A DNA stretch of 64,000 nucleotides, taken from positions 64,001 to 128,000 of the IMG/VR virus record IMGVR_UViG_3300029243_000160; one strand, written 5' to 3'. Origin of the DNA: a virus. Under the pieces are notes generated by a model. It saw only the letters and a list, made by a program, of their open reading frames with translations. It did no database searches and had not been told where the DNA came from. Of this stretch, positions 8,968 through 53,098 are shown one piece after another (the first letter of the stretch is position 1; every line of letters starts with the position of its first letter). A program made the position numbers and the translations under genes.

Positions 8968-9280
8968 AATTTGCGGTGTGTATGACATCGGCTACAGTTA
9001 CACTTTGGACACTTATGTGCTGGCAGTCAATGTACTTGCTCTTTGGCGGTATACTCGTTATTACTCCATCACAAAGGAAGAATACGATTTGCACAGAACA
9101 GCCAAAGGATTAAAAGAGCTGGACAATATTGCGTGGCAGTGTATCAGTGCAGAAAATCAGCATAAGCGTTTTCTTTGTTCTGATATGATGCCAGAAAATA
9201 CGCCGGAGCAGGAAAGCACTCATGCCAAACTGAGCGAAAGCCTCCAGAGGTATGACGCATCAAAAATCAAATTTATTTGA
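8945..9280 (+). CDS. hypothetical protein (111 aa)
   Basis: ORF track only. The start lies inside the ftsH 3' end and no motif was recognised. Confidence 0.35.
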   Translation: MLRRIKHRICGVYDIGYSYTLDTYVLAVNVLALWRYTRYYSITKEEYDLHRTAKGLKELDNIAWQCISAENQHKRFLCSDMMPENTPEQESTHAKLSESLQRYDASKIKFI

Positions 9281-9287
9281 AAGGAGA

Positions 9288-9857: not shown

Positions 9858-9963
9858 CACAGAAAGGCTGAACACAATGGCTCATGTTGACTTATGCTTA
9901 CTGGAAGACTTCGTACACCCAAAGTTTCAAGAATTTTGGACTGAATAACGGCGGTGATAAGCT

Positions 9964-10500: not shown

Positions 10501-10554
10501 TAACGGATATTTAACAGAATAAACATTGACCTATATTGATATAAATGATATAAT
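10500..10554 (+). promoter_or_regulatory. ATAACGGATAT motif + promoter (TTGACC-17-TGaTATAAT)
   Basis: Motif 10500-10522, -35 at 10526-10531, extended -10 at 10546-10554. Confidence 0.7.
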
Positions 10555-10560
10555 AAAAAG

Positions 10561-10737
10561 CAGAGAATCCCTTTGTTGCAGGTAGCAACATAATTATGCG
10601 GTAGCACCTTATCTTTTTTCAAGGAAAATCCGTTTTTATGCTTTTACAACCTGCTTGTGATATAGCAGGAAATGAAAAAGGGAATAGAAACGAACGATTT
10701 TACAGGTATGGTGTAGCTCACTGTACCTGTTTTTTTA
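10561..10737 (+). ncRNA. leader RNA A (~175 nt) ending in an intrinsic terminator, upstream of the 10761-21421 operon
   Basis: Promoter-to-terminator unit. Shares the block ATGCGGTAGCACCTT...CAAGGRAA...TCCG and a CCTGCT/AGCAGG hairpin with leader B (21493-21725). Confidence 0.5.
10702..10737 (+). terminator. rho-independent terminator/attenuator
   Basis: ACAGGTATGGT...ACTGTACCTGT stem (~11 bp including G-U pairs) followed by TTTTTTT, 24 nt before the ATG at 10761. Confidence 0.7.
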
Positions 10738-14960: not shown

Positions 14961-17900
14961 ATGGCAAAGAAGAAAATCGAAGATTTCGGCGAAGAAATAT
15001 TCGGTGCAAGAAAACATCTTGCTCAATTGAATCGTGAACTTCGTGCTACAGACATCGGCGATTGGACAGATGCTGAAAGAGAACAAAATGTAACGAAGAA
15101 TACTGCATTCCCGAAAGTTGACTACAAGAAAGAGTATGCAGACGGCAAAGACAGAGAAGTTTTGTATTTCATTAAGACACTTCGTGACAAATTACCTACA
15201 CAGCCGCTTTATCCCTTAAAAAGTCTTTATACGCCAGAACAGCTTCCAGAAGCGAAAAGGCAGGCTCAGGAAGATTATCTGACGACTGTTTCCTATGTGT
15301 ATCAAAAAGCGATGCAGTTGGAAAAGCCAGAGGATTTCAAAAAGTTCTTTAATGAAGTGTCTGCTGCCAAACTCCCTAAGAGCGATAAAATCTTAAAAGA
15401 TGCAAAGAAAGTTCTGGATTTTGACGGTAGATGGGGAGAATACACTTATCAAAGATTTCAGAGCAAACTTGAAAAAAATAAATTCTGCTTTTCCGACAAG
15501 GAAAAATTGCTGAGTAATTATGAGATTTACAAATATGATGGGAAGAACGTCAAACGTGACGAGCAGCTTTCTAAAGCTTATCACAAAGATTACATGAACG
15601 TGTCATTCGGGTACGGTAAGCGAATATTTCTTGCTAATAACGAAACCGAGGCAAACCCTGACAACTGGAAGCAGGACACATATTTTGCGATTGCTAAAAG
15701 CAAAGTAGACTTGATTGCAATGAACATTCCGTCAAGAGAAGCCATAGAAGAAAAACTTGTTGCGATAGAGCAGGAAAAGCCACAGACAGAGAAGACAAAA
15801 AAAGCTGGTAAGAAGGCGTTGAAGCCACTGCAATTACAGCATATCCGACCGACCACAGAAGATTACAGACAGGGTAAGCCCGTGGTTGAAAACGATTTTA
15901 TGAAAGATAGCTCTACTGCTACTTTTCCGTTCCGTGGCGTACAGTTCGGCAACTGGACAAACCAGAATGACAGACAGGAAAATCTGAATATGTCATTTGA
16001 TGCTTTCAAAGACCTTGCCAAAGCTCTGCACATTCACGATGAAGATGTTACCCTTGGTGGACAGCTGGCAATTGCATATGGTGCAAGAGGTCACAGCGGA
16101 GCAGTTGCTCATTACGAACCAGCAGAAAATGTTATCAACCTCACAAAAATGAGAGGTGCTGGCTCTCTGGGACATGAATGGGGACACGCTCTCGACAATT
16201 ATATTGCCAAGCAAATTGGTTCTCATGAGATGTTCGCATCAGATGGTGCTTCGATAGACCACATTTACGGCGTAGATAATCCAATGGTAAATCTGCTGAA
16301 CACAATGAAGTATGACAATAGTGATACTGGCAGAACACAGTTTTATCGTGATGCTAAGGCACTGGACGGTGCTTACAGCACAACAGGAAACCAGAAAGGC
16401 AGCAATAAAAAAGGGCTGTACTGGTCGAGCGAAACAGAAATGTTTGCTCGTGCTTTTGCATCTTATGTACATGATAAATTGGGCGAATCTGATTATCTGG
16501 TAGGTCATTCAGAAGGCAATTATCCCATCACTAAAAAAGATGGGACAGAAACCACAGTTTCCATTTCTCCACAGGGCAAAGAAAGAGAACGCATCAACGA
16601 TGCTTTCGATAAGCTTTTTGAACGGCTGAAAGAAATGGAGATTCTTCATGACAGTGGCAGAGAGCTACCGAAAGAGCAAACGAATACTGTGCAAAAAGAC
16701 GCTCAGGAAGAACAGATTCAGTCCTCTCCTGCTATATCTCCTACCTCTGAAAGCCAAAAAACAAGCACAGAATCCAAACAGACCTTGCAGCAACTTGTTG
16801 AAAATGCAATGCAGAAAGCAAAGATGATGGTCGATGCGGAAAGTTTGAAGGAAGGGGATATTGTTCGCCTTTATGGTGATACCGCCATAGATTCCAGAAC
16901 CATGAAACCTACCGAATTGCCACCAACATATGCAAAAGTGGATTCTGTTAGTGAATCTTCTATCAGTTTCAAAACATATTCTGATGAAGAATGCACAAAA
17001 ATGAATGGTATCAGTTCTTATTTTTCTACACCGGACGAACCGTGGACAAAGAAACTCGCCACACAGGGCTTCGATGTGATTCAGACAAAAGAACAACAGC
17101 TTGCAGAGCAAATGGCTGCTGAACAGGAAACATCACAGCAGAAAGAACGTCCAGTTACAATTACCTGCATTTATTCCGAAAGCCTTGGAATTGAAAGTGG
17201 TAAAACGTATTCCGTATCAGAGTTTGATGCGACCATGAAACAGCTTGACGATGAACGTGTCAGCAACCGCAAAGAAGGCTTGGAAAAGTACGGCAGTGAG
17301 AGGGCTTGGGAGCAACAAGATGAACAGTCTTATTATGCCAGCCTCGGCTATGATAAAACATCATTTACGATAAATTTGAATGACGGCACACAGGAAACTT
17401 TCCGTCAAGACATTGGCGATGGAGATGGTGGTGTCATAGATTTTGTAAAGTCGATTGGCAGAGATGACCTTGCTGAAATTCTCCAGAATGCAGTTGTCGC
17501 CGAACAGCAGATGGCACAGGAACAAGCAGAGCCTGCTCCGGAAGTAACTGAACCGAAAGAAGATGTTCAGAACACAGAACAGGCAGATGCTCAGTCAGCG
17601 ACAAACGACCATTCGTATGAGTATATGCTTCTTGACCGTTTGCGTTCGGACTGTGAATACTTCCTTGGTACAGGCGAAACCGCAGAAAACAATCATCTGT
17701 GTGCTGGTAATCCGGAAGCTCAGATTGAAAAAATGCAGGAGCTTTATGATATGCTCCCTGAAAAACCAGAATGGCTAACACAGGAAGACATCAATCAATA
17801 TGCACAGCAAATGATTCCGGAAAAAGAGGCTGAAAAGACTGAACCACCCTCTCCTGCTGTTTCAGAACAAGAATCTGAAACAAATCGGATTGCTGATGAA

Positions 17901-18539
17901 GCAAGACTTTCTGCTTTAGAAGCACAAAAGACTGCTCTTGACAGCATGATGAAAACGCTGGAAGTCAGCAGAAATGTACTGAATCCGCAGGCAATCACAG
18001 CAATTGAACAGGCTATCGCATCAATCACAGCCGACATTGAACGGCTTTCTGAACCTGATGCGGAAAAGACAGCTCACGCAGAGCAAGAAACGCAGAAAAA
18101 TGCTGAACAGCCTGCTCCAGAACATTCAGAATCTGTTGCAATTGATTGTGATATTGCTGACATCACAAGAACTGATGATGGCTTCTATGAATTTGAGCTG
18201 TCCATTGAGACAGTTGTGGAAGCCTTGAATCGGGCAGCAGACGTTTCCGAAGACCTTCAAAACTTCTTTGTTGAAAATGGTGTGCCGGAAAAGTCAGTAA
18301 TTGAAGCAGATGAACCATATATGGTTTATGGCGAGATGAATCCGGATATTGACGATGGTATTTCCATGCGGTTACAGCTGATAAATCCGGATATTGATGT
18401 AGAAATTCCGCTTTACAAAGAAGAATGCCATGCGTTATCTGAAAAAATTGCAATTCTGGACAAAGCTGAACCAGAGCTGCCGAAGGAAGATAACGAGAAA
18501 GAATTTGTGCAGTTGGAATTTGATTTTGACAAGGAGTGA
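14961..18539 (+). CDS. polyvalent-type large protein with zincin-like metallopeptidase domain
   Basis: 1192 aa, RBS AAGGAAGGAG. HExxH at ~aa 405 (GSLGHEWGHALDNYI, nt 16172-16186), followed by SSETEMFARAFASYV. Long Q/E-rich linkers and several further globular segments (e.g. MLLDRLRSDCEYFLG...), an architecture typical of plasmid/phage polyvalent proteins. Confidence 0.8.
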   Translation: MAKKKIEDFGEEIFGARKHLAQLNRELRATDIGDWTDAEREQNVTKNTAFPKVDYKKEYADGKDREVLYFIKTLRDKLPTQPLYPLKSLYTPEQLPEAKRQAQEDYLTTVSYVYQKAMQLEKPEDFKKFFNEVSAAKLPKSDKILKDAKKVLDFDGRWGEYTYQRFQSKLEKNKFCFSDKEKLLSNYEIYKYDGKNVKRDEQLSKAYHKDYMNVSFGYGKRIFLANNETEANPDNWKQDTYFAIAKSKVDLIAMNIPSREAIEEKLVAIEQEKPQTEKTKKAGKKALKPLQLQHIRPTTEDYRQGKPVVENDFMKDSSTATFPFRGVQFGNWTNQNDRQENLNMSFDAFKDLAKALHIHDEDVTLGGQLAIAYGARGHSGAVAHYEPAENVINLTKMRGAGSLGHEWGHALDNYIAKQIGSHEMFASDGASIDHIYGVDNPMVNLLNTMKYDNSDTGRTQFYRDAKALDGAYSTTGNQKGSNKKGLYWSSETEMFARAFASYVHDKLGESDYLVGHSEGNYPITKKDGTETTVSISPQGKERERINDAFDKLFERLKEMEILHDSGRELPKEQTNTVQKDAQEEQIQSSPAISPTSESQKTSTESKQTLQQLVENAMQKAKMMVDAESLKEGDIVRLYGDTAIDSRTMKPTELPPTYAKVDSVSESSISFKTYSDEECTKMNGISSYFSTPDEPWTKKLATQGFDVIQTKEQQLAEQMAAEQETSQQKERPVTITCIYSESLGIESGKTYSVSEFDATMKQLDDERVSNRKEGLEKYGSERAWEQQDEQSYYASLGYDKTSFTINLNDGTQETFRQDIGDGDGGVIDFVKSIGRDDLAEILQNAVVAEQQMAQEQAEPAPEVTEPKEDVQNTEQADAQSATNDHSYEYMLLDRLRSDCEYFLGTGETAENNHLCAGNPEAQIEKMQELYDMLPEKPEWLTQEDINQYAQQMIPEKEAEKTEPPSPAVSEQESETNRIADEARLSALEAQKTALDSMMKTLEVSRNVLNPQAITAIEQAIASITADIERLSEPDAEKTAHAEQETQKNAEQPAPEHSESVAIDCDIADITRTDDGFYEFELSIETVVEALNRAADVSEDLQNFFVENGVPEKSVIEADEPYMVYGEMNPDIDDGISMRLQLINPDIDVEIPLYKEECHALSEKIAILDKAEPELPKEDNEKEFVQLEFDFDKE

Positions 18540-32786: not shown

Positions 32787-34070
32787 CTATCGTTTTCTTG
32801 CACCTAATGGATTGCAAACATACTTACGTTCTCCGGACTGTTTTTCTTTCAGTCCATCGAAGTATTCGCCGAGTGATTTCATTTCCATTTGTTTCAGTTC
32901 TTTGGTTGCGTCTGCATAGATGTTCATGGTTGTCTCTGCATCTGCGTGACCCAAGATTTCCTGCATCGCTTTGATGTTGACACCAGCTTCGCACATTCGT
33001 GTTGTGAACGTATGTCTGAGATAGTGACAGCTGAATGGTGGAAGCGTAAGCCCCATCTTGTCAAGCTGTTTGAAGTTGCAATCTCGGATAATTCTTTTCA
33101 GTGCTTTGTTGAGTGTTCCCTGATGCTGAACATTCCCAAAACGATTGATAAAAATAAAATCTGTATAGCCGTCAATCTTTGACTTGCATACCAAATTATT
33201 TTCTTTTTGATACTGTCGTTCCATTCGGAACATTTCCTTGACAATCGGCAACATCGGAATGGTTCTTTCCCCTGCCTTTGTCTTCGGAAGGTTTACTGCG
33301 AAACCACAGGTTTCTTCTCCCGCACGTCTTCTGTCGAAGTACACCAGCGTGTGATTGACGCTGATTGCTTCGTTCTCCATGTCGAGGTCGCACCAGCGTA
33401 AACCTGTTACTTCTCCGACACGCATTCCGGTGTAAAGCATTACCATAAAAATCGGTTGCCAATGCTGATACTCTGGAGTAAGTGCCAGATAATTTTCAAA
33501 AACTTCCTGCTCTTTCACGGTTAAAGCTCTTCTTTTCATAATATCACGTTCCCTTGCTTTTTTCAATTCTTTCAATGCTCCGTCTGACGGATTGAACCTC
33601 ATGTATTCGTCTTCTACACCAAGTTCCAGAACCTGATGCAGGACTGTGTGTACACTGTCCACCGTACTGACTTTCAAGCTTCTTGTTTCTGCAAGGTAGT
33701 TGTAAAAAGCTCTGACATCTGACTTTCGCAGGTCGTCAATTTTTGTGTTTCCGAAGTCTGGTTCAACAAACTGTTCGTACATATAGCAATAGTTCGTGAA
33801 GGTGTTGACTTTCAATCCACGCTTCACCTGTTTCCATCTGCAATATAAATCGTTGATAGTCATATTCTTGCTATCCGGATTTATGCCGTCCAGCATATCC
33901 CTCAGAACATCGGTTTCTTTCTCTCGCAAATCTTCAAGCGTCTTTCCATACACTGTTCTTCGCCTGCCTGTTTTATCACGCCAGCGAAATTCATATGTGC
34001 CGTTTGGACGCTCGTATTCTCCTTCTTTGAGAACACGTCTTTTGCTGTCTTTTCTTCTCTCTACTGCCAT
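32787..34070 (-). CDS. int: tyrosine recombinase / integrase, Tn916-Int-like
   Basis: N-terminal arm-binding-type segment RVLKEGEYERPNGTYEFRWRDKTGRRRTVYGKTLEDLREKE. C-terminal catalytic boxes HYLRHTFTTRM and LGHADAETTMNIYAD. RBS AAGGAGAAAG. Confidence 0.9.
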   Translation of the reverse strand: MAVERRKDSKRRVLKEGEYERPNGTYEFRWRDKTGRRRTVYGKTLEDLREKETDVLRDMLDGINPDSKNMTINDLYCRWKQVKRGLKVNTFTNYCYMYEQFVEPDFGNTKIDDLRKSDVRAFYNYLAETRSLKVSTVDSVHTVLHQVLELGVEDEYMRFNPSDGALKELKKARERDIMKRRALTVKEQEVFENYLALTPEYQHWQPIFMVMLYTGMRVGEVTGLRWCDLDMENEAISVNHTLVYFDRRRAGEETCGFAVNLPKTKAGERTIPMLPIVKEMFRMERQYQKENNLVCKSKIDGYTDFIFINRFGNVQHQGTLNKALKRIIRDCNFKQLDKMGLTLPPFSCHYLRHTFTTRMCEAGVNIKAMQEILGHADAETTMNIYADATKELKQMEMKSLGEYFDGLKEKQSGERKYVCNPLGARKR

Positions 34071-34192: not shown

Positions 34193-34390
34193 TTAAATCG
34201 AATACGCTTTCGCAAGGTATTCGTCCAGCTTCTTTCGCTTTATCAGACGTTTGCTTCCGTTCCAAAGTACAAAAGAGCAGTTATCATCATTTGACATTTC
34301 CCTCAGTTTGTTGATGCCGATACCGCAATATGCACTCGCCTCTTCCAGTGTCAGATTTGTTTTTTCCCATAGTGGAATTTGAATTGCCAT
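34193..34390 (-). CDS. xis: excisionase-family HTH protein
   Basis: 65 aa. LTLEEASAYCGIGINKLREM HTH. Lies directly upstream of int. RBS AGAAAGGAG. Confidence 0.8.
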   Translation of the reverse strand: MAIQIPLWEKTNLTLEEASAYCGIGINKLREMSNDDNCSFVLWNGSKRLIKRKKLDEYLAKAYSI

Positions 34391-34470: not shown

Positions 34471-34543
34471 GAAGTAATTTACATAAGTCTTTATAACAGA
34501 AAAAATCCCCCGAAACGAACAGTTCCGAAGGCTTATGTGACTG

Positions 34544-34579
34544 CAAAAAAATAAAACCGCTGCCAGCGAGACAACGGTT
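34544..34579 (-). terminator. rho-independent terminator
   Basis: Minus-strand AACCGTTGTC-TCGCT-GGCAGCGGTT followed by TTATTTTTTT. Confidence 0.6.
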
Positions 34580-34748: not shown

Positions 34749-34949
34749 TTAAAGATAAATCTCAGAATCAATAATATAACCACATTTACATTTTACAACG
34801 GTTCTGTTATCTTCCAAAATCACTTTCGGGGTCATATTGCACTTCGGACACGTTGTCGTTACATATCCGTTTTTCTTCATCTCCGCTACAGCTTGATTTG
34901 CAAGCATAATGGGTTCTGTTAAATTCTGTTTCTTCATCTGAGTATCCAT
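34749..34949 (-). CDS. small zinc-ribbon protein (66 aa)
   Basis: Strong RBS GAAAGGAG 6 nt before ATG 34949. Motif CPKC...CKC. Overlaps the 3' 143 nt of the upstream ORF in another frame. Confidence 0.55.
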   Translation of the reverse strand: MDTQMKKQNLTEPIMLANQAVAEMKKNGYVTTTCPKCNMTPKVILEDNRTVVKCKCGYIIDSEIYL

Positions 34950-35892
34950 AAAGAACTCCTTTCATAAAACTATCTGTTTCTTTATCTGTTTCCAAAATAT
35001 TTCCGCTTTCTCTTGCTCTCTCTTTTGCATCATTGATAAGGTCTGCACGTTCTTGTTGGGAAAGGTTTGGAGCGTTTTTTGCTGCGGTAATACTTGCCCT
35101 GCACTCATCTGCCCACTGGGGCGTAGTTCTGTCTGCATCTTCCTTTCCCAAATCTGCTAAATATTCATTTCTAAACACTCGATGACCATAATATTCATGA
35201 GCAAGAACAGCAGCTACACTCATTACATCTCTTGGGTGTGTTGAACCGTGGTCATTATCTGGGAAAACATTTCTTGTCACATATATTTTATCCTGAACAC
35301 AATTGTAACAGGTGCTTCTATCCATATGTGCTTCATCATTAAAGATGAATACAGATTCATCAGCTCCAATTCTTCTTATTTCTAATTTTACAAAATCAAT
35401 TTCTTCATTTGTCAATGGCTCTCTTGACAAATTACGCATTCCAGATGACATTAGTTTGTCATCTGAATGAAAATGTTCAAATAGCTTTTCTTCATTTTTC
35501 ACACGCCAACTTTGGAAGGGAGCTTTTTTTCGTGGAGCGTTTTTTTCTCCAGATTTTATTTTCCGCTTGACTGGCTCACTACCCTGAATTTTCTTCATCA
35601 TATCATATTGTTTCCCAATATTTGTGACATCAAATCTGCTTACACATTGAGCAAACCACGGAAATTCGTCTGTCAACTTTTCAACAAAGCGTTCTACCTG
35701 CGTTTTACTCATTGGCTTATCAGAAGAATAACCAGACAATTGCCTGTGTGAAAATCCGTTTTCTTTCATGAAAGTTTTTATTTCTTTGTAAGCTTTCAAA
35801 TATTCCAACGGATTGTTTGTGGTGCAATAAACTTCTTTCAGCTTTTTTGTATCGAGGTCGAAGTTAATAGCCTTTCTCATTTTACCTACCAT
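34807..35892 (-). CDS. VapD (Cas2-fold endoribonuclease)-like domain fused to an HExxH zincin-like domain
   Basis: N-terminus RKAINFDLDTKKLKEVY..AYKEIKTFMKENGFSHRQLSGY...FPWFAQCVSRFDVTNIGKQYD aligns by eye with VapD (YAxAFDL..L...Y..AY..GF..QGSxY..W....V......F). C-terminal domain has AAVLAHEYYGHRVFRNE. Start is ATG 35892 or 35880. Confidence 0.7.
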   Translation of the reverse strand: MVGKMRKAINFDLDTKKLKEVYCTTNNPLEYLKAYKEIKTFMKENGFSHRQLSGYSSDKPMSKTQVERFVEKLTDEFPWFAQCVSRFDVTNIGKQYDMMKKIQGSEPVKRKIKSGEKNAPRKKAPFQSWRVKNEEKLFEHFHSDDKLMSSGMRNLSREPLTNEEIDFVKLEIRRIGADESVFIFNDEAHMDRSTCYNCVQDKIYVTRNVFPDNDHGSTHPRDVMSVAAVLAHEYYGHRVFRNEYLADLGKEDADRTTPQWADECRASITAAKNAPNLSQQERADLINDAKERARESGNILETDKETDSFMKGVLYGYSDEETEFNRTHYACKSSCSGDEEKRICNDNVSEVQYDPESDFGR

Positions 35893-35894
35893 GA

Positions 35895-36224
35895 TTATTT
35901 ACCATATTGGGTATCGAAATCTTTGATTTCTTTGAGAATATCTTCTGTACTGTTATCGCTTGCATCATACCATTCCATTTTTTTCAGGTACTTGGCAAGC
36001 CAGCTATCATACAGGGAATTTGCAACAATGCCGACCTCACTGAAAGAATCTTTTCCTTCTTCAATGACAAAAACAAGCTCTTTGTCTGTATCTGATACTT
36101 CCTTGAAGTTGCAATTTTTGAAAGCATCTCTTACAGTTTTGTATATTGCGTTTAGGTCATGCTGTTGAAACCGTAGTACCTTATCATCATCAATCACAAC
36201 TGTGATTTTGTATAAGTATTTCAT
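35895..36224 (-). CDS. hypothetical protein (109 aa), candidate partner of the VapD-like protein
   Basis: Trimmed to ATG 36224 (the longer ORF-track version overlaps the NADAR gene). Separated by 2 nt from the downstream vapD-like start. Confidence 0.55.
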   Translation of the reverse strand: MKYLYKITVVIDDDKVLRFQQHDLNAIYKTVRDAFKNCNFKEVSDTDKELVFVIEEGKDSFSEVGIVANSLYDSWLAKYLKKMEWYDASDNSTEDILKEIKDFDTQYGK

Positions 36225-36238
36225 ACTATCTCTGCCTT

Positions 36239-36670
36239 TCATTCGCCACTTTTGATTTCTGCTCGTATCTGCATCAAAATGAAGCCCAGTCGATTCGCCC
36301 CAGAACCGTTCACTGTTCCCCAAATCCTATCGCCCCATGTGTTGCCTTCTTCCAAATACGCATCACCTGTGGCAAGCAATTTGTCTGCAAGTTCTGTGTT
36401 TTGCGTGAACTTTGCTCTGACGATTTCTTCCATGATTCTGACTTTGACAGCTTCCCAATCCTTCCGCAAATTTACTTTCCTACCAAGCTTCTTTGCTTCG
36501 GTTGGATTCAGTTTCGTGAACTGAATTTTTTCAGAATCGCTCGTGCATTTCTGTGCCTGAAAAGCTGCTTCGTTGTTGGTGTAAGTCAGTTGCTTATATG
36601 TTACCGGACATTCGTAGAAATTACTCAAAAAGAAAAAATCTCCACGAAATTGTTTGATTGCTTGTTCCAT
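36239..36670 (-). CDS. NADAR (YbiA/DUF1768) family ADP-ribosyl-hydrolase-like protein
   Basis: FRGDFFFLSNFYECPV, NNEAAFQAQK, W..VK..IM and GANRLGFILMQIRAEI match the NADAR pattern I know. RBS TGAGGTGA. Confidence 0.8.
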   Translation of the reverse strand: MEQAIKQFRGDFFFLSNFYECPVTYKQLTYTNNEAAFQAQKCTSDSEKIQFTKLNPTEAKKLGRKVNLRKDWEAVKVRIMEEIVRAKFTQNTELADKLLATGDAYLEEGNTWGDRIWGTVNGSGANRLGFILMQIRAEIKSGE

Positions 36671-36690
36671 AAGGATTCACCTCATTTCCG

Positions 36691-37137
36691 TTACAAGTAT
36701 TTCTTATATATTTTTTCACAAGCGTTTGGATAAGATGTTTCATGCAACGGATTATATAACTTCATCATCAGCTCTGCCGGAACTTTTTGGCTTATGGTTT
36801 TAGAAGGAATATTATACTTCCATTGCAACATAACATAAACGTGTGCAACCCACTCCAGCAGGATATTGTCATATTCTGTATTATCAGCCTTCGGCTTGCA
36901 TCTTGTAAAGTCAATAGAGTGCAGCAATTGTTTATAGCCCTTGTTTAACGCACTCCAATTGCCTTTATCCATTTTCTTTCGTATTTCTGAATGTTGCATA
37001 TACTCATCAATCATCGAACACAAACTGTACTGTTCGATTTCATTAAGCTTCAAAAATAGCAGTGTGTGAACATCTTCAACATCTTCCAGATACGAGGAAT
37101 CATACGCTTTATTATCTGTCATCAATTTCAAACTCAT
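36691..37137 (-). CDS. helical protein, DUF3791-like (tentative)
   Basis: Start trimmed to ATG 37137 (or 37122). Position immediately downstream of a DUF3990-like gene matches the common DUF3990/DUF3791 pairing. The family call is from memory and weak. Confidence 0.5.
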   Translation of the reverse strand: MSLKLMTDNKAYDSSYLEDVEDVHTLLFLKLNEIEQYSLCSMIDEYMQHSEIRKKMDKGNWSALNKGYKQLLHSIDFTRCKPKADNTEYDNILLEWVAHVYVMLQWKYNIPSKTISQKVPAELMMKLYNPLHETSYPNACEKIYKKYL

Positions 37138-37858
37138 TCCTTTCGTTAGCACGTTCTTCCTGTAAATAGCACCCATATTCCTTGTTGTATTCATATTGAG
37201 TGCTGATTACATCTTTCACAGTCAAACCAGCTGGTTTGAACCCATCAATCTGAATGGCGTACTCTCTGTTGTGCAAGAATTTTCCGACTTCTCTTCTCGC
37301 CTTTGCGTCAGCTTCACCATAATGAGAATCTTTGTTCATTGAGACATTTTCATAGTCTTCAAAACAAATCCGGTCAAATGCTTTTTCACTTTTTATAAAC
37401 ACCTGTTGCCCAAGATTGCCATTACGGAACATTCTATCAACTTCGTCAACAGACAACTGATTTCGCAAAAAAGACTTCACTACATTCATGTAGCTGTCGT
37501 CTGCACGATACCCAATTATTACATCGGCTTTTGAAGTGTCAATCTTATACATTTCCACAAGTTTGTCTGCAACTGCCTGTGTAAATTCGTCTGATGCACC
37601 TCGATGATTCGTTACCTCTGCAATCCATGCGAGTGTTCCGTGTTCATCAAGATTCAGGACGTTCAGTCCATCAAGGTCTATCGAATATTGATTACACACC
37701 GCAGATTTATCAGAGCCGTTTACCCAAGCCCATTCTCTTGCTTTTTCAATATCCTCTGTTGTGTAAAATCCGCTTCCGTAGTCGTTATCCTCTTTTCCAA
37801 CTCCGTACAGTGGTTTCTTTAAGATAACATCACTTCCGTGATATAAAATCTTTCTCAT
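37112..37858 (-). CDS. DUF3990-like protein with PARP/ART-like H-Y signature
   Basis: MRKILYHGSDV...DYGSGFYTTEDIEKA. HGS plus GxGFY mirrors the PARP-type LWHGS...GKGIYFA motifs. RBS AGAAAGGA. Confidence 0.7.
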   Translation of the reverse strand: MRKILYHGSDVILKKPLYGVGKEDNDYGSGFYTTEDIEKAREWAWVNGSDKSAVCNQYSIDLDGLNVLNLDEHGTLAWIAEVTNHRGASDEFTQAVADKLVEMYKIDTSKADVIIGYRADDSYMNVVKSFLRNQLSVDEVDRMFRNGNLGQQVFIKSEKAFDRICFEDYENVSMNKDSHYGEADAKARREVGKFLHNREYAIQIDGFKPAGLTVKDVISTQYEYNKEYGCYLQEERANERNEFEIDDR

Positions 37859-37875: not shown

Positions 37876-38385
37876 TCAAAAAAACGGAATCTCACAAATG
37901 ACTTTCGCTTGAATCTGGTCTTTCTTAATATATCCAACTGCTTTATCTCGACTGTCCGAACTGTAATTGCGATTATCGCCCATAACAAAATAGCAGTTGT
38001 CTGGAACAGTTATCGGATATTCAAAAGCACCCTCATCAAGATGCGTCATTTCTTTGATGTAAGGCTCTACAAGCGTTTCACCGTTCACTTTTACTGCTCC
38101 AGAATCAAAATCAATATCCACGGTATCGCCTTCTGTGGCAATCACACGTTTAATCAATACGATTCCGGCATCACAGTCTGTAATAATGACATCGCCTTTC
38201 TCCGGCTCTGCATGGCGTAAACACAGCAGTTTCTCACCATCAAAATAAGTATCGTTCATCGAATTGCCACTGACGGTTGCAATTTTCAACACGCCAAAGA
38301 ATAAGAATGCTGACACGCCGATGATTGCACCGTAAATTGCAGTATTCTTAATCAGAATTTTTGCTTTGCTGTTCAAAAATAACAC
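37876..38385 (-). CDS. lepB: signal peptidase I (S26)
   Basis: N-terminal TM helix; SGNSMNDT (catalytic Ser box); LIKRVIATEGD (Lys box); GDNRNYSSDSR. Start uncertain (GTG 38385 or TTG 38376). Confidence 0.85.
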   Translation of the reverse strand: MLFLNSKAKILIKNTAIYGAIIGVSAFLFFGVLKIATVSGNSMNDTYFDGEKLLCLRHAEPEKGDVIITDCDAGIVLIKRVIATEGDTVDIDFDSGAVKVNGETLVEPYIKEMTHLDEGAFEYPITVPDNCYFVMGDNRNYSSDSRDKAVGYIKKDQIQAKVICEIPFF

Positions 38386-38394
38386 TCCTTTAAG

Positions 38395-38934
38395 TTACAA
38401 GGATTTCTCAGCTTCTGCGATTTTATCCAGTTTTTGATTGATTTCATCAACCTTATTCGCAATATCCATAATGTCAAAATGTGTGGTTGTGAATACGATA
38501 TAATCACTGACACGCATCGAAAGAGCTGCTGCTCTCTTCTTGATTTCTTCAAATGCCTCTGGCGTAATTCTGATATTCAGCTGAGTGCTTCCTGCTTTTT
38601 CTATTTCTGGTTCTGAGTAGCTTGCTTTACTCATTGTTTTTTCTCCTTTGCCTTTGATATTGCTTACGTCTACGCCTCGGCACTTTGCCAGTGCATTGGT
38701 TTTGTTCAAGGCATCATTCAGTAAGCCGGACACGTTGTTCAGGTCAAACGAAAGTGCCGTATACAGCACATATTCGCTGATTGTAATGCCGTATTTTTCA
38801 CATGATGTGCGAATTTTTTCATTGGAAACAGCATCAACATAGACGTGCATACGTTTTGTCTTTGCTCCTTCCAAGTAGCGGATATTTTCTCCAAAAAGAG
38901 CATAAGCCCTTTCCATTCTGTTTCCTACTGCCAT
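38395..38934 (-). CDS. tandem ribbon-helix-helix (MobC/CopG-like) DNA-binding protein
   Basis: Two RHH-like units: MHVYVDAVSNEKIRTSCEKYGITISEYVLYTAL and LNIRITPEAFEEIKKRAAALSMRVSDYIVFTT. Confidence 0.6.
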   Translation of the reverse strand: MAVGNRMERAYALFGENIRYLEGAKTKRMHVYVDAVSNEKIRTSCEKYGITISEYVLYTALSFDLNNVSGLLNDALNKTNALAKCRGVDVSNIKGKGEKTMSKASYSEPEIEKAGSTQLNIRITPEAFEEIKKRAAALSMRVSDYIVFTTTHFDIMDIANKVDEINQKLDKIAEAEKSL

Positions 38935-48067: not shown

Positions 48068-48814
48068 TCAGTCCTCGTTTCTCAGTAGGTAAATGTCGTC
48101 TGCGACAGGTTCTTCGCTTCCTTCTGGAGCAGTATCATATTCGATTAACAACGTATTTGTGCCGTTATTGTACGCAATCATGTCGTCCAATTCTGTTCCA
48201 GCACCAAACTGAGATTCTACAGCACTCTTTTCTGTTCCAGTTGTGATAACTCCGCAGAAATAGACGTTGAAGTCACTTCTTGTAAAGAACTGACTTGCAT
48301 GGACACCTTTCAGCTTGTAGATGCCGAAGTCTTCCGTTTTCAAGCGGTCACTGTCTACGATTTTTCCATCATAATTTTCCACTTCCAGAGATACTTCTGT
48401 GCAGTCATCTGAACCCTGTTGGTTCAAACTGTACATCGCACTGTGAAAGGAAAAGCTGCTCTCAACCGATGTTGCACCAAAGCTGTCACAGGACAGCCCT
48501 GTATCGCTTAACACCTTTTCCAGACTGGGAGCTTCATTCAAATTGATAGTTACTCCGTTGATAGTCACACTGCTCATGTCTGCATCTGTGTTGACATCAA
48601 CCGTAGGTACAACTGGATAGATGGTTTCGTCAGCTGGTGAGTTTTCCTCGACCTCAGCATCTGAACTCACTTCGCTGTCGCTTTTGCTTGCAAGCGTTTC
48701 CTGTGAGGCGTTGATGTGAATTTCCGGCTCACTGGAAGAATCATTTTGTTTGCCACAGCCTGTTACCGAAATCATCATGCACAGTGCCAGAATCAATCCG
48801 ATTTTCTTTCTCAT
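48068..48814 (-). CDS. lipoprotein (paralogue family A)
   Basis: Lipobox MMISVTGCGK. C-terminus ...YNNGTNTLLIEYD...DDIYLLRNED parallels the other two paralogues. ATGA overlap with the DUF262 gene stop. Confidence 0.75.
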   Translation of the reverse strand: MRKKIGLILALCMMISVTGCGKQNDSSSEPEIHINASQETLASKSDSEVSSDAEVEENSPADETIYPVVPTVDVNTDADMSSVTINGVTINLNEAPSLEKVLSDTGLSCDSFGATSVESSFSFHSAMYSLNQQGSDDCTEVSLEVENYDGKIVDSDRLKTEDFGIYKLKGVHASQFFTRSDFNVYFCGVITTGTEKSAVESQFGAGTELDDMIAYNNGTNTLLIEYDTAPEGSEEPVADDIYLLRNED

Positions 48815-49863
48815 TCTTCAAAGCTCCCTTCGGATTTATATTCGCTGTACGCATCATACATTGCGTTGATACGTCCGCTTACATTCCATGCGTGGTTTGT
48901 GCCATTCACAGAACAGTCGCTGTATACCGTTTTCTGTTCGCTGTCTGGTTCGTTGTTGAAGAACCAAAGCAGGAATTTCCCGATATTTTCAATGCTTTCT
49001 TTGTTTTCCTGTATTTCAAGCTGGTGACAGAAGTAGATAACATTCACAAGATTTGTTTTCTTGACAGCCCTTTTCAAAACCGCTTTTTTGCCGTTTTCTG
49101 CAACATACTCCAGTACGGAATCTGTAAAATCCAGAAGAGCCTGCATTGCTTCTGTCGTATTTGCATCGAAAGCCATGTTTTCATAACTTTCTTTGATATT
49201 CTTTGCAGACAGTTCAAACTGCCCGTCATAGATTTGCAGAGCTGTTTTGATGACAACATCTTCATTCTGATAACCTGCTCGTGCCTTATCTGTCATGTAC
49301 TTCATAAACAGGTCGGACTTTGCAAGCTGAATTACCGCTGGCAGGTTCTTTGCCTTGATTCTGGATTTTTCAATACCAGACAGGACTTTGCCGTTATTCA
49401 GTCGGAACATCATCTCTGCCAGTTCATCATCTGTTATATCGGTGAAGAAATACACTGTCATTGTGTAGCTTTCAAATGCTTCTCTCGCTTCTTCCGGCAG
49501 TTCCTCGTAAGTCATGCCGTTCAGGTCAACTTCATCACCACACCAGTCGTACCAAGGCAGGGACAGACCAGTCAAAGCAAATTCGTTATGATAGAACGCT
49601 CGAATTGCTTCGCATCGTTGTTTGCCATCGAAGCAGTCGAACACCTTGCTGCCTTTCTTGCAACCTGCCGGAGCATCAATATCTGTTTTAATAGTGTACA
49701 TCGGTGGCACTGGGTAATTATGAATCAACGATTCAATGAGCAGGCTCTGCTGAACCACATTCCAGACGTTTCCTCTCTGAATAGCATTGTCGAATACCAT
49801 GCTACCCTTTGTGACTGCCTTTGCAATCTGTTTCGCACTCCATGCAATGTTTGCCTTAATCAT
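48811..49863 (-). CDS. DUF262 (GmrS/ParB-like NTPase) domain protein without DUF1524/HNH part
   Basis: FDNAIQRGNVWNVVQQSLLIESLIHNYPVPPMY...FDCFDGKQRCEAI matches the DUF262 pattern (QR..vW, DGxQR). Confidence 0.75.
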   Translation of the reverse strand: MIKANIAWSAKQIAKAVTKGSMVFDNAIQRGNVWNVVQQSLLIESLIHNYPVPPMYTIKTDIDAPAGCKKGSKVFDCFDGKQRCEAIRAFYHNEFALTGLSLPWYDWCGDEVDLNGMTYEELPEEAREAFESYTMTVYFFTDITDDELAEMMFRLNNGKVLSGIEKSRIKAKNLPAVIQLAKSDLFMKYMTDKARAGYQNEDVVIKTALQIYDGQFELSAKNIKESYENMAFDANTTEAMQALLDFTDSVLEYVAENGKKAVLKRAVKKTNLVNVIYFCHQLEIQENKESIENIGKFLLWFFNNEPDSEQKTVYSDCSVNGTNHAWNVSGRINAMYDAYSEYKSEGSFEE

Positions 49864-50438: not shown

Positions 50439-52409
50439 TTACATTGCTTCCAGATAATCCGATTCAAAATAGGCATCTTTCACTCTGCCTTTTGTGATTG
50501 CTTTTGCGACTGCTCGCATGAACTTTCTTCTGTCCGGAATCACAACGCTGTACTGTTCATTTGTTCTTATGTTCCAGACGATTCCCTTATTCAGTCCGAA
50601 CGCAATCATATAGCAGGCACATTGCAAGAAATGCTCATGGGACAATTCTTCTACGAATTTCAGTTCGTAGACTGTGTTGTTTTTGATAACGTCTGGTCTG
50701 CCAACAATGTCGTACACATTCTCGTTACCATCAATAAACTGCATGGAAAAGTCTTCCTGCACTTCTTCTTTGCCTGTAAACTCTGTTCGCAGACGATTAT
50801 GAATCAGGGAAAGTTGTTCCTCTGTGAGAAACGGCGGCTTTACCTGATAGTAATAACGGTTCTGGTATGTTTCGTATGCTGTCAGATACAGTACCTTTTC
50901 TTCCAGTGTTGCATCTTTTTTCAAGTTCAGAGGCGGTCTGTCGTCAGCAATATCCATTGCATACCGAATCTGTGCATCAATATCATAGTTTTCAAAGAAG
51001 CTTGCTTCCTGATAGATGCCGATGCAAGGAGAAAGGTCAATCATGAAGTCTTCCGAATCCACATCAATCATGGACTTATCTGTTCTTGCTTTCTTTCTTT
51101 TGCGAATCAGCTGATAGCACTCTTCCACATCTTCTTTGTATTTGAAATCGAACATTTCACTTACCTGAAAAGGACGCTTGTACTCTCCGTTTGTCGGAAC
51201 AGGTGTCGCAACGATTTCGTCCGGAAGCACATCGCTGAACGGTTCTTTTACAATGATGATTTTTTCTTTGCCTCGGCTCATAGCAACACAGAAGATGTTC
51301 CGCAGAATCTCATACTTTACGTCCGGATAGCCCATTCTGACAGACCAGTAGTCCAGTGTATAGTCAAAGACAACACAAATCTTTCGTTCCAGCCCCTTGC
51401 TGCTGTCAAAGGTTGTGAAGATGGCTGTAGACTTATCCGGAATCGTTCTGCCTGCATTGTCATCAGAAATGCTGGCGTAAACGGTTTTCTTGTTGAACTT
51501 TTCCGGATATTTGTCCTCTAAGTCGTTCAGGACACTTGCCATTTTTCCTGTTCTTGCCCCCAAGCACAGAATGTCAGACGGCTTCTGCTTTGCCAAATAC
51601 TCAATCACATCGCACAGCTCCATTGTTTCCAGCTTGCAGTCTTTGTTCACACCATTGATTTGCTTTCCCCAGATGTCCCCAAGACGGCTTGCAAGGTCAC
51701 TACAAAGACGGAAGCACTTTGTAAAAGTAACTGTATCATACCTTCCAAGAAACTGATTGATAAAGATAGGCACATTCAGTGTTGTTTTATCGTAAATCTT
51801 CTGCTTCATATCACCAACAGCAACAATCTGCACCGCTGGATTGCTCTTCTTGACGCATTCCAGCATCTCTGCGATTTCCTGTTCGATGTCCTGATATTCG
51901 TCAATCACCAGCAAGTCATACTTCGGGACTTCGATTTTTGTCTTGTTCTTCAAGAAAATCTGAATCAAATCAGAAATGCCAGCAGATAAGTGTGCGTTTT
52001 TCAAGCACATATATGCAAATCCGTGATAGTTGGTAACAGTTACGTTCTTTCCTCGAATTTTATCTCTTGCGTCAATCTTCAAAAGTGTGTTGTAAGTCAA
52101 ATACAGCACCTTTTTGTCCGGTATCTCATTGCACAGCACCTGAATTGTTGTAGTTTTACCACTACCGATGCAGGCATCTACCAGAACATTCTTTCCTGAC
52201 TTTGCAAGAGCAATCATAGATTGCTGCTCTTCGGAAAGGTCAGACAGTTGCATAACTGGCGTTGGTGTCCACTTGTCGAAACGGCTGTCGGCAGTTCCTT
52301 TATAGTACCACTGCTTTTGTCTAGCGTCCCATTTCGCTCCAAGAGCCTTTACCTCATCTTTTTCTACATAAGGCACTTGCAGATAATGAATTGTATTTTC
52401 CCATGCCAT
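50439..52409 (-). CDS. UvrD/PcrA-like SF1 helicase with C-terminal PD-(D/E)xK-like nuclease and short N-terminal YLxVPYxEKD..WY module
   Basis: Trimmed to ATG 52409 (RBS GAAAGGAAAGG). Walker A CIGSGKTT; motif II LLVIDEYQD; motif III VGDMKQKIY; motif V SSKGLE; motif VI VAMSRGKEKI. C-terminus GRPDVI...VYELKF. Confidence 0.8.
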   Translation of the reverse strand: MAWENTIHYLQVPYVEKDEVKALGAKWDARQKQWYYKGTADSRFDKWTPTPVMQLSDLSEEQQSMIALAKSGKNVLVDACIGSGKTTTIQVLCNEIPDKKVLYLTYNTLLKIDARDKIRGKNVTVTNYHGFAYMCLKNAHLSAGISDLIQIFLKNKTKIEVPKYDLLVIDEYQDIEQEIAEMLECVKKSNPAVQIVAVGDMKQKIYDKTTLNVPIFINQFLGRYDTVTFTKCFRLCSDLASRLGDIWGKQINGVNKDCKLETMELCDVIEYLAKQKPSDILCLGARTGKMASVLNDLEDKYPEKFNKKTVYASISDDNAGRTIPDKSTAIFTTFDSSKGLERKICVVFDYTLDYWSVRMGYPDVKYEILRNIFCVAMSRGKEKIIIVKEPFSDVLPDEIVATPVPTNGEYKRPFQVSEMFDFKYKEDVEECYQLIRKRKKARTDKSMIDVDSEDFMIDLSPCIGIYQEASFFENYDIDAQIRYAMDIADDRPPLNLKKDATLEEKVLYLTAYETYQNRYYYQVKPPFLTEEQLSLIHNRLRTEFTGKEEVQEDFSMQFIDGNENVYDIVGRPDVIKNNTVYELKFVEELSHEHFLQCACYMIAFGLNKGIVWNIRTNEQYSVVIPDRRKFMRAVAKAITKGRVKDAYFESDYLEAM

Positions 52410-52448
52410 ATGCTGTGCCACCTTTCCTTTCAAGAATATTATAATATC

Positions 52449-52514
52449 ATTATAGCATAATAGTGTACAAATGTCAAGGTATATTAAGGTGTTACTCTGT
52501 AGATTATTCGTTAT
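52449..52514 (-). promoter_or_regulatory. full cassette: ATAACGAATAATCTACAGAGTAA + TTGACAtttGTACACtattatgcTATAAT
   Basis: -10 at 52449-52454, -35 at 52472-52477, motif at 52492-52514. Confidence 0.7.
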
Positions 52515-52543
52515 GTTTTTCGTAATTATTTGTGCAAGCATAC

Positions 52544-52569
52544 AAAAAGAGCAGGTTATCTGCCTGCTC
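52544..52569 (-). terminator. rho-independent terminator
   Basis: Minus-strand GAGCAGG-CAGATAA-CCTGCTC followed by TTTTTG and GTATGCTTGCACAAA. Confidence 0.7.
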
Positions 52570-52570
52570 C

Positions 52571-53098
52571 TTACAATTCCTGTTTCAAAGAGATGCCGAG
52601 CTTGTGAAACCGCATTTTGATTTCCTGCACACACGCTATGCCGATGCCTGTACAGTTCAAAAGTTCTTTTTCACTGTATTGTTTCAGAATCCCGATGGTA
52701 TCAATATCGTTGGATTTTAATGCTGTCGATGTCCGGAAAGAAAATCCAGCTTTCAAAACCGATGTATTTAGCAGCGGATTGGTTTCTGTCGGATTTCTTC
52801 TGCATCGGACTGAAAAGTATTCATCTTCCATAACACCGCCAAAATCCCGAACTACTTGTCGGATTCGCTCTTTTGTTACGCCGTACTCGTCAGCCAATCG
52901 TTCCAACGTATAGAAGTTGATATATCTTTTTTGAATGATTTCAGCATTTCTCTCATCGGTTCTGTAGAAGGCAGATTCTATCACTTCAACAAGCACATTA
53001 TGTTTTTCCTCGTCCAAGTCAATTCCGATTCGTTCCAGCATATCCTTCTGGAACGCTTTTCTACACAGCAGAGTGTTAATCTGCTCTTTACCTGTCAT
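52571..53098 (-). CDS. fusion of sigma-70 region-4-like HTH and RNA polymerase alpha-CTD-like domain
   Basis: AEIIQKRYINFYTLERLADEYGVTKERIRQVV matches the sigma region 4.2 pattern. FSFRTSTALKSNDIDTIGILKQYSEKELLNCTGIGIACVQEIKMRFHKLGISL aligns by eye with E. coli alpha-CTD [53 protein letters not shown]. Confidence 0.75.
   Translation of the reverse strand: MTGKEQINTLLCRKAFQKDMLERIGIDLDEEKHNVLVEVIESAFYRTDERNAEIIQKRYINFYTLERLADEYGVTKERIRQVVRDFGGVMEDEYFSVRCRRNPTETNPLLNTSVLKAGFSFRTSTALKSNDIDTIGILKQYSEKELLNCTGIGIACVQEIKMRFHKLGISLKQEL

Follow-up and report, generated by a model that had tools for sequence, protein, structure and literature searches.

When six genes follow one another almost without gaps near the end of a mobile element, do they make up one conflict system, or are they separate pieces of cargo that share a slot? 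The question is raised by the locus at positions 34749 to 37858 of a 64,000-nucleotide stretch of DNA (positions 64,001 to 128,000 of the IMG/VR virus record IMGVR_UViG_3300029243_000160), hereafter the window, whose six genes (g1 to g6) had been proposed in a first-pass annotation, made from the sequence alone, to form a single ADP-ribosylation-based module. The six genes are not one system; they are two unrelated cassettes standing side by side. In the reading that we favour, and to which we assign a probability of about 60%, these cassettes are independent: cassette A would consist of an ADP-ribosyltransferase (ART) toxin (g1) with a binder (g2) and a NADAR eraser (g3), and cassette B of a VapD-HExxH protein (g5) with a zinc-ribbon partner (g6).

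Two cassettes in one cargo slot

All six open reading frames (ORFs) lie on the minus strand in the same direction, spanning 37858 to 34749, and their earlier description as separated by 2-20 nt or overlapping is borne out by the junctions read from the sequence. The upstream signal-peptidase gene and g1 are 17 nt apart; g1 and g2 overlap by 11 nt, given a g2 start at MTDNK (nt 37122), which is the most likely one; g2 and g3 are separated by 20 nt; g3 is followed by g4 after 14 nt, or by an ATGA overlap with the g3 stop codon if the alternative start is used; g4 and g5 are 2 or 14 nt apart, depending on the start; and g5 and g6 overlap by 143 nt in different frames. No terminator-like sites were detected between genes of the string; hairpins occur only past g6 and likely mark the end of the transcription unit. 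Homologues were found for all six ORFs at very low E-values, so the string is not a chance pattern. Because a Tn916-type excisionase (xis) and an integrase (int) lie downstream and a NikA-like protein and a signal peptidase lie upstream (Table 1), the string occupies the cargo slot, between the mobilisation genes and xis-int, of a Tn916-family integrative and conjugative element (ICE) of a gut Clostridia bacterium. The end of the element shows the combination by which this family is recognised, a Tn916-type Xis and an integrase with the Tn916 N-terminal DNA-binding domain. The same element was found at 97-100% identity in gut metagenome contigs and in one IMG/VR contig; neither the PLSDB plasmids nor the INPHARED phages contained a megablast match to the 3.1-kb region.

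Neighbourhoods of homologous loci, in which ORFs were called heuristically and only the best-scoring loci were sampled, present the two halves of the string apart from each other. A sister ICE (L203) has a backbone in common with the window (47% identity for the NikA-like protein, 65% for the S26 peptidase and 50% for Xis) and the gene order NikA-like, S26 peptidase, g1-g2-g3, Metallophos_2, Fic, a 519-aa gene, xis and int. Genes g4-g6 are absent from it, and the Metallophos_2 gene, the Fic-domain protein gene and the 519-aa gene (7710-10686) stand in their place. The slot between g1-g3 (the PDC-M42 cassette described below) and xis is a hot spot at which toxin-like genes are exchanged. The combination of g1, g2 and NADAR without g4-g6 was likewise found in L204, L001, L002, L008, L097, L098 and L101, and the HExxH and zinc-ribbon pair without g1-g4 in more than 50 other phage and ICE loci. 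In a natural variant of the window element (L095, 8979-9254), an internal deletion removes about aa 17-299 of g5 and leaves g1-g4 and g6 intact. Since L203 carries other cargo in place of g4-g6 and L095 has lost most of g5, we regard the six-gene string as the product of cargo stacking rather than as a system, and a six-gene 'super-system' as an artefact of that stacking beside xis-int.

The view of the six genes as a single integrated ADP-ribosylation-based system, with writer, eraser and VapD-protease acting together, could appeal to the tight co-directional packing without internal terminators and to the preservation of the whole string at 97-100% identity in several metagenome contigs. Every six-gene copy, however, is the same element at that level of identity, and the halves are apart in all diverged lineages: in all other examined lineages that have g1-g3, g4-g6 are absent, and the HExxH gene and g6 occur elsewhere without g1-g4. 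The L095 element dispenses with most of g5 while keeping its neighbours, and the close relatives of g4 are lone chromosomal genes. The neighbourhood data therefore largely refute the single module of the first-pass annotation, which we consider very improbable.

The DUF3990 protein, its partner and the NADAR hydrolase

The first-pass annotation knew of no described system that combines a writer-like ART, a NADAR eraser and a VapD-protease fusion. The g1-g3 trio itself is already catalogued: the PADLOC-DB hidden Markov models PDC-M42A, PDC-M42B and PDC-M42C match g1, g2 and g3 (7.6e-45, 2.4e-16 and 2.7e-14, respectively) in the catalogued order A>>B>>C, and ART and NADAR pairs are established for other ART families (PMC11543638, PMC11125620). 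PDC-M42 is a PADLOC phage-defence candidate with 72 RefSeq instances, which owes its candidate status to being found embedded in restriction-modification (RM), BREX or DISARM loci (Payne et al., bioRxiv 10.1101/2024.01.29.577857). The DUF3990 family, to which g1 belongs, is also the A or B component of the PADLOC candidates PDC-M10 and PDC-M13.

The match of g1 to Pfam DUF3990 (E 3.5e-36) was the only one at E<=0.01, with neither DarT (DUF4433) nor any other ART family detected at this threshold; DUF3990 is itself a member of the Pfam ART clan, as is RES. An AlphaFold2 (AF2) model of g1, based on an alignment of 36 homologues, had a pLDDT of 89.5 and a pTM of 0.83, and its top Foldseek matches in the PDB were a cyanophage pre-ejectosome protein, a diphtheria-toxin homologue, the ART domain of PARP4 and the rifampin ART Arr. 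Against BFVD, the best match was a small phage protein (E 1.3e-7, TM 0.5-0.6), and lower in rank came large polyvalent proteins, several of them annotated as ART-PolyVal (probability 0.87-0.99). Some sequence homologues of g1 bear an additional match to PF18760, which we take to be ART-PolyVal. Sequence and profile searches of the PDB with g1 returned nothing informative. The proposed check of g1 against PARP and other ART folds thus gave ART-type matches in agreement with the Pfam clan, and the model supports the assignment of g1 as an ART-fold protein nearest to ART-PolyVal and PARP.

The H-Y part of the H-Y-E signature of ARTs, as suggested for g1, was borne out. Its H and Y, which lie in the motifs HGS (residues 7-9, within LYHGS) and GSGFY (residues 28-32), are invariant in a set of 103 non-redundant homologues (37-67% identity), as are W43, N56, Y58, R86, D112, Y117, R118, D120, D121, S122, Y123 and Q152 (103/103 in each case); no glutamate is invariant in this set, so the DUF3990 family is not H-Y-E. 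In the secondary structure of the model, H7, Y32 and W43 occupy strand positions that fit an NAD+ pocket with its His at the end of beta-1 and its Tyr in beta-2 (GxGxY). The spacing from Y32 to W43 is 11, and this pattern of H, Y and an aromatic residue at +11 mirrors that of PARP, where the corresponding pair is Y896 and Y907 of PARP1. D112 starts the strand 113-117 and Q152 the strand 151-155. Judged by conservation, the third catalytic position would be an Asp or a Gln, with D112 and Q152 the best candidates among D112, D120, D121 and Q152, and g1 would be an H-Y-D/Q variant, as in Arr or the HYD clades. DUF3990 is also the C-terminal toxin tip of a Serratia type VI secretion system (T6SS) Rhs effector that is followed by a downstream immunity ORF, which lends independent support to toxicity.

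In a survey of DUF3990 that used one genome per species, at least 581 loci were each confirmed to encode a relative of g1, and the best 80 of them were examined. A partner ORF of at least 120 aa lies downstream of the DUF3990 gene in 74 of these 80 loci, nearly always with an overlap of 1-50 nt. A C-terminal helix-turn-helix (HTH) of the Xre type is present in 62 of 75 partners (the 74 and g2 of the window), the usual layout being an N-terminal g2-like domain followed by the HTH. Type II antitoxins that double as autorepressors are typically built in this way, with an HTH on the partner of an overlapping gene. The DUF3990-partner pair was also found in 27 IMG/VR contigs and in 40 PLSDB plasmids, 28 of them conjugative, and DUF3990 cassettes occur on ICEs and prophages as well. 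The obligate partner of DUF3990 is g2 and not NADAR; the g2 of the window belongs to a subclade whose partner (143-180 aa) has lost the HTH.

The earlier label of g2 as DUF3791-like had to be abandoned. Neither g2, which has no match in Pfam, nor any of 64 representatives of its subfamily matches DUF3791 (PF12668), hhalign against a DUF3791 protein of a Clostridium tetani plasmid gave a probability of 0.2%, and only 2 of the 75 wider partners show weak matches (E about 2e-3); the model that does match is PDC-M42B. The C. tetani plasmid itself (L202, NZ_AP026805.1, 2274-3215) carries a distant DUF3990 clade (30% identity) in a different gene order, with a 75-aa DUF3791 gene upstream of, and overlapping, the DUF3990 gene and a 76-aa ORF downstream, and this layout is probably that of a PDC-M13-type cassette.

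The identification of g3 as a NADAR protein was confirmed. It matches Pfam NADAR (E 3.3e-28; 99.4 bits against a gathering cut-off of 35.1) and NCBIfam TIGR02464, the YbiA riboflavin N-glycosidase family (76.4 bits, cut-off 73.7), and its nearest relative in the PDB is Escherichia coli YbiA (2b3w, E 3.5e-20). Residues E34 and K41 of g3 (NEAAFQAQK) align with SEHYFQAQK of YbiA, so that the catalytic Glu and Lys of the superfamily, as defined in PMC11543638, are kept.

Several lines of evidence link this gene to the DUF3990 pair. An adjacent, co-directional NADAR gene was found in 6 of 17 loci with a short, HTH-less partner versus 0 of 86 loci with a long, HTH-bearing one (Fisher p = 8.7e-6). 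It lies downstream in L001, L002 and L098 and upstream in L008, L097 and L101, and the retention of adjacency in a variable order argues for functional coupling of NADAR with the DUF3990 pair. The A-B-C order of the window recurs in two more independent elements, L203 and L204, whose g1, g2 and g3 proteins are 67/64/66% and 56/59/64% identical to those of the window, respectively; such matching values across three proteins point to co-inheritance of the trio. An exhaustive phmmer search with g2 yielded 102 cluster representatives, and 4 of the 64 that were examined (P0327, P0337, P0348 and P0351) are independent fusions of the g2 domain to NADAR. In L201 (3241-5002), a fusion of this kind is encoded 4 nt downstream of a DUF3990 gene, which results in a two-gene layout like that of DarT and DarG. 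The proposed writer-eraser link is upheld, and the co-occurrence of DUF3990 with NADAR is significant, within one part of the family: on the sequences surveyed, NADAR appears to be recruited, or fused to the partner, in the HTH-less subclade only.

Two other NADAR loci deserve mention. The g2-NADAR fusion of L200 (1-2356) is flanked by a VgrG3-C/lysozyme-like protein, cut by the contig end, and by a NERD nuclease; a DUF3990 gene was considered at this place, and the upstream gene encodes the lysozyme-like domain instead. The g2-NADAR antidote may pair with other partners too. In L001 (3647-4465), the NADAR protein has a C-terminal extension of ~130 aa with no Pfam match.

The VapD-HExxH protein and the overlapping zinc-ribbon gene

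The fusion of a VapD domain to an HExxH domain in g5 was confirmed. Its N-terminus matches the NCBIfam VapD model NF041506 (113.9 bits, cut-off 100), is 42-44% identical to Campylobacter jejuni VapD (PDB 9kan_A, E 1e-24) and aligns with VapD structures in Foldseek (TM 0.69, target-normalised). D8 and S49 are the counterparts of D11 and S46 in VapD-Cje, and with this Asp and Ser kept the domain is predicted to be catalytically intact. In the C-terminal half, the AF2 core (aa 150-300) has a pLDDT of 85-98, the HEYYGH motif is invariant in 51 HExxH homologues, and the invariant residues of the family include C191, H215, H228, E229, H233, E239, E259 and C260. A Pfam search with this domain, decided by vote over the 51 homologues, assigned no family, and sequence and profile searches of the PDB with the C-terminal family gave nothing informative.

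Among the 120 homologues listed of 202 matched by g5, full-length VapD-HExxH fusions form only two lineages, P0121 of the window element and P0124 (58% identity), the latter encoded in L082, where g4-g5-g6 directly precede a Tn916-type xis/int. Most homologues are stand-alone proteins of about 227 aa that contain the HExxH domain only, and their genes adjoin type IV secretion system (T4SS) or RepA/Par genes of conjugative elements. In IMG/VR, the domain is the C-terminus of 410-840-aa proteins, and in 10 of 10 sampled phage proteins the N-terminus was Phage_Mu_F or Phage_min_cap2 (SPP1 gp7 family). The HExxH domain (34948-35460 in the window; loci L083-L090 and L140-L199) constitutes a sizeable family that has no Pfam model and takes three forms: stand-alone, as the tip of MuF proteins and, rarely, fused to VapD.

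The string ends, as had been noted, with a zinc-ribbon gene: g6 has the four-Cys pattern CPKC...CKC and a strong ribosome-binding site (RBS), AAAGGAG. Proteins like g6 (46-57% identity) are encoded in the same overlapping position in L082, L083 and L087, and a four-Cys ORF of 35-100 aa with a g6-like pattern lies downstream of 49 of 51 non-redundant HExxH genes. MuF toxins have variable C-terminal tips, with metallopeptidases in 20%, and small putative immunity ORFs downstream (PMC5576092). By analogy with these small ORFs we read g6 as a putative immunity protein or regulator of the HExxH domain.

The overlap between the HExxH gene and the zinc-ribbon ORF is 8-20 nt in the phage MuF fusions and 143-167 nt in the ICE/stand-alone clade (34807-34949 on the minus strand of the window, 1314-1471 in L082, 8518-8684 in L083 and 8524-8684 in L087), where the HExxH ORF extends for ~45 codons through the N-terminal half of g6. 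Within the overlap, g6 keeps in its own frame the level of conservation of its remaining part (38-54% versus 42-63%), and the g5 tail, predicted to be disordered, is less conserved than the g5 core (33-47% versus 59-67%); of the two frames, constraint appears to fall on that of g6. A conserved g5 motif, FMK(G/E)V(L/V)YGY, doubles as the RBS and start codon of g6.

Between the cassettes lies g4, a member of a small family of Clostridia proteins with 56 homologues and no recognisable affiliation; neither sequence nor profile searches matched it to any PDB chain. Its close relatives (63-74% identity; L103-L110) stand alone in chromosomes beside unrelated housekeeping genes (patatin, PfkB, metallophosphatases), with no VapD in their neighbourhood, and a g4 gene precedes a VapD fusion only in the window element and in L082 (a 53% homologue). 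The copy carried by the ICE resembles a gene captured from a host. The first-pass designation of g4 as an ORF in the VapX position is apt as to position; as to similarity it failed, given that hhalign against a VapD/VapW-type profile gave 0.5% and the PDB searches, which included VapX (6zn8) and VapW (9kan), gave no match, with VapY not compared. An antitoxin role of g4 towards VapD is possible but unsupported.

Genes of mobile elements and of conflict abound in the rest of the window. The plus strand, opposite to g1-g6, encodes at 14961-18539 a large polyvalent protein of 1192 aa (domains LPD1, LPD11 and LPD25), in a plus-strand block that ends at 32194, next to the integrase end; this may represent either a mobile element of its own or the other arm of the ICE. 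An FtsH-like AAA+/M41 protease of 598 aa (7171-8967, plus strand) is also located in a mobile-element region. Defence-like cargo is found 11-15 kb upstream of the string, comprising a GmrSD_N/NsnA-like protein (48811-49863, minus strand, the same as g1-g6; PADLOC NsnA 1.6e-23) and a UvrD/GajB-like helicase with C-terminal PD-(D/E)XK and DUF5710 domains (50439-52634, minus strand). No further copies (paralogues) of g1-g6 were found within the window, and tRNA and Rfam scans of the entire window detected nothing.

Table 1. Genes, domains and signals of the six-gene string and its immediate flanks, in window coordinates.
Feature	Position	Strand	Description	Basis
NikA-like gene	38395-38934	-	Mobilisation protein, upstream, co-directional	Pfam
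Signal peptidase gene	37876-38385	-	S26 family, directly upstream of g1, co-directional	Pfam
g1	37112..37858	-	DUF3990 protein, 248 aa, putative toxin, PDC-M42A	Pfam, PADLOC, AF2, Foldseek
g2	36691..37122	-	HTH-less obligate DUF3990 partner, 143 aa, putative toxin-binding antitoxin/adaptor, PDC-M42B	PADLOC 2.4e-16
g3	36239..36670	-	Predicted YbiA-type NADAR hydrolase, 143 aa, PDC-M42C	Pfam, PDB 2b3w
g4	35895..36224	-	Small protein, 109 aa; alternative ATG at 36242 overlapping the g3 stop	56 homologues
g5	34807..35880	-	VapD nuclease domain and HExxH zincin-like domain, 357 aa (361 aa from ATG at 35892)	NCBIfam, PDB 9kan, Foldseek, AF2, alignment
g5, VapD domain	about 35581-35880	-	aa 1-100	D8 and S49 intact
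g5, linker		-	aa 87-141, disordered	AF2 model
g5, HExxH domain	34948-35460	-	aa 141-311	HEYYGH at 35182-35199
g5, tail		-	aa 312-357, disordered	AF2 model
g6	34749..34949	-	Four-Cys zinc-ribbon protein, 66 aa, start inside the g5 coding sequence	Sequence; conserved position
Hairpins	34507..34569	-	Two terminator-like hairpins with T tracts, 3' of g6	Sequence
xis	34193-34390	-	Tn916-type excisionase	Pfam Tn916-Xis, 6e-19
int	32787-34070	-	Tyrosine integrase	Integrase_DNA and Phage_integrase (Pfam)

Proposed mechanism, alternatives and known systems

The fold and family assignments, gene linkage, fusions and co-inheritance of cassette A are observed; for its enzymatic activity, target, toxicity and trigger we infer the following course. 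Using NAD+, g1 would attach ADP-ribose to a base of a nucleic acid, with guanine or cytosine the most likely target. Translationally coupled to g1, g2 would bind and restrain it, and g3 would remove the leak modification that g1 makes. Loss of the antidote, through loss of the element or a phage-induced shut-off, would free g1 and lead to growth arrest, with element addiction and/or abortive infection as the outcome. The g2-NADAR fusions, the subclade-specific NADAR adjacency and the co-inheritance of the trio lead us to read g2 and g3, by analogy, as jointly a split form of the two-domain DarG-like antidote, a binder and an eraser, to the putative ART toxin g1. Precedents exist in DarT1-NADAR and YarT-YbiA, which are proven toxin-antitoxin pairs (PMC11543638, PMC11125620); in the latter, a YbiA-type NADAR rescues from an unrelated ART toxin. 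YbiA-type NADARs take ADP-ribose off guanine and cytosine, and DS-32, which combines a phosphoribosyltransferase with a NADAR protein, is a validated anti-phage system.

Several points weigh against the two-cassette reading in this form. Foldseek matched g1 only weakly to ARTs of solved structure (TM 0.29-0.34, E of 1.5e-3 at best), and with no invariant Glu among the 103 homologues (E81 and E139 both vary) g1 could be an NADase, a non-transferase or inactive. The partner g2 is without a recognisable fold or family, and its binding to g1 is putative. Most DUF3990 loci lack NADAR, which makes NADAR an accessory, and the target base of g1 is a guess taken from NADAR specificity in other systems. 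The literature searched contained no functional experiment on any DUF3990 protein or on PDC-M42. For cassette B, the zincin fold of the g5 C-terminus is weakly indicated (Foldseek probability 0.13-0.33 for anthrax lethal factor and an M48-like peptidase); g5 has natural variants with deletions or truncations, the truncated clusters P0122 and P0123 among them, so it may be dispensable or decaying; and g6, instead of conferring immunity, could serve as a substrate, chaperone or regulator.

Some of these points would suit a toxin of the RES-Xre type, in which g1 consumes NAD+ as an NADase or phosphorylase, g2 is a binding antitoxin and NADAR either handles ADP-ribose-derived products or is loosely coupled. 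RES belongs to the same Pfam ART clan, the usual DUF3990 partner resembles that of RES-Xre modules in bearing an Xre HTH, the catalytic Glu is not invariant and an eraser of any kind is missing from most loci. We nevertheless think this unlikely, as the characterised NADAR activities considered here are de-ADP-ribosylation of guanine or cytosine and N-glycosidase cleavage of riboflavin intermediates (YbiA), not turnover of NAD+ breakdown products, a reversible adduct is what the g2-NADAR fusions and the strong adjacency specific to one subclade suggest, and the nearest structural relatives of g1 (ART-PolyVal, PARP, Arr and the diphtheria-toxin homologue) are transferases. Should g3 be a mere YbiA-like metabolic enzyme, a riboflavin-intermediate N-glycosidase that lies beside g1-g2 by chance, its best NCBIfam and PDB matches to the YbiA riboflavin N-glycosidase family would be explained; what would not be explained is its adjacency in at least 9 independent loci in variable gene order or the existence of fusions to the g2 domain, and YbiA-type NADARs themselves serve as antitoxins and base de-ADP-ribosylases, which leaves this explanation barely credible.

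A use of the cassettes in offence rather than self-maintenance also deserves some, if small, weight: as establishment effectors of the ICE, expressed or delivered on entry, they would include a g3 that counters a DarT1-type defence of the host, in the manner of orphan NADARs of phages, and a g5 that is injected. In favour of this, g1 is structurally nearest to the ART-PolyVal domains of phage polyvalent proteins, and a large polyvalent protein is encoded within the window; the HExxH domain is found on phage head-ejection proteins and beside T4SS genes, and PMC11257639 describes orphan antitoxin-like enzymes carried by phages against DarTG1. Against this, g1 has a dedicated overlapping partner, usually with an autorepressor-type HTH, which is a hallmark of self-protection; NADAR is fused or adjacent to that partner and is not an orphan; PDC-M42 is embedded in RM, BREX or DISARM loci; and the cassette carries no secretion or relaxase-type signal.

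If the toxin-antidote reading of cassette A is right, the cassette would represent a new chemistry or target for nucleic-acid ADP-ribosylation, and a PADLOC candidate would gain a mechanistic frame. Pairs of an ART toxin and a NADAR eraser are a recent discovery (DarT1-NADAR in 2023, YarT-YbiA in 2024), and DUF3990 is a large, uncharacterised ART family of the gut microbiome, distributed over plasmids, ICEs, prophages and T6SS Rhs tips, for which our analysis predicts a Glu-less catalytic set (H7, Y32 and D112 or Q152), an obligate partner and a subclade with NADAR recruited or fused. The HExxH and zinc-ribbon pair is an unclassified putative effector family common to phage ejection proteins and conjugative elements, and bears on how mobile elements condition a new host. 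Taken further, and only tentatively, at rather less than even odds, DUF3990 cassettes might form a third family, of very wide distribution, of toxin-antidote or abortive-infection systems that act by reversible ADP-ribosylation of nucleic acids, with a Glu-less H-Y-D/Q site and a split antidote, and the HExxH protein with its zinc ribbon might be a new effector-immunity pair delivered by phage heads and conjugative elements, here uniquely joined to VapD.

Of the known systems, PDC-M42 has the same three families as g1-g3 in the same order; the window cassette differs in being located in an ICE cargo slot and not inside an RM or BREX locus. With RES-Xre and type II toxin-antitoxin modules, DUF3990 loci share an ART-clan toxin gene that overlaps a partner with an Xre HTH (62/75), whereas g2 of the window is HTH-less and g1 is not a RES domain. 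The DarG protein of DarTG2 consists of a macrodomain and a DarT-binding domain. The resemblance to DarTG2 lies in an antidote that would combine enzymatic reversal with physical neutralisation, and the g2-NADAR fusions beside DUF3990 have the same two-gene layout, but the domains are unrelated (NADAR in place of the macrodomain, g2 in place of the DarG C-terminal domain), the two functions are split into two genes in the window and g2-g1 binding is putative. DarTG1 and YarT-YbiA likewise link the gene of an ART-fold toxin to that of a NADAR/YbiA hydrolase of the kind that reverses base ADP-ribosylation, the resemblance in the window being one of linkage only; in contrast to those systems, g1 is a DUF3990 protein and not DarT, its family has no invariant Glu, an obligate non-enzymatic partner (g2) is present, and NADAR is optional across the DUF3990 family.

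For cassette B, the comparison with VapXD, VapYD and VapWD (PMC11980593) is one of the nuclease itself, as the g5 N-terminus is a bona fide VapD with the catalytic Asp and Ser kept. It differs from them in that VapD is fused to an HExxH domain of 220 aa, a rare arrangement, and in that PDB and profile searches, in which VapY was not compared, revealed no VapX- or VapW-like neighbour. Compared with MuF polymorphic toxins (PMC5576092), g5 of the window has no MuF domain (no Mu_F Pfam match) and has VapD at its N-terminus, and its HExxH domain matches no Pfam toxin family; what it shares with them is an HExxH domain that elsewhere occurs as the C-terminal extension of Phage_Mu_F and minor-capsid-2 proteins and is followed there by a small ORF.

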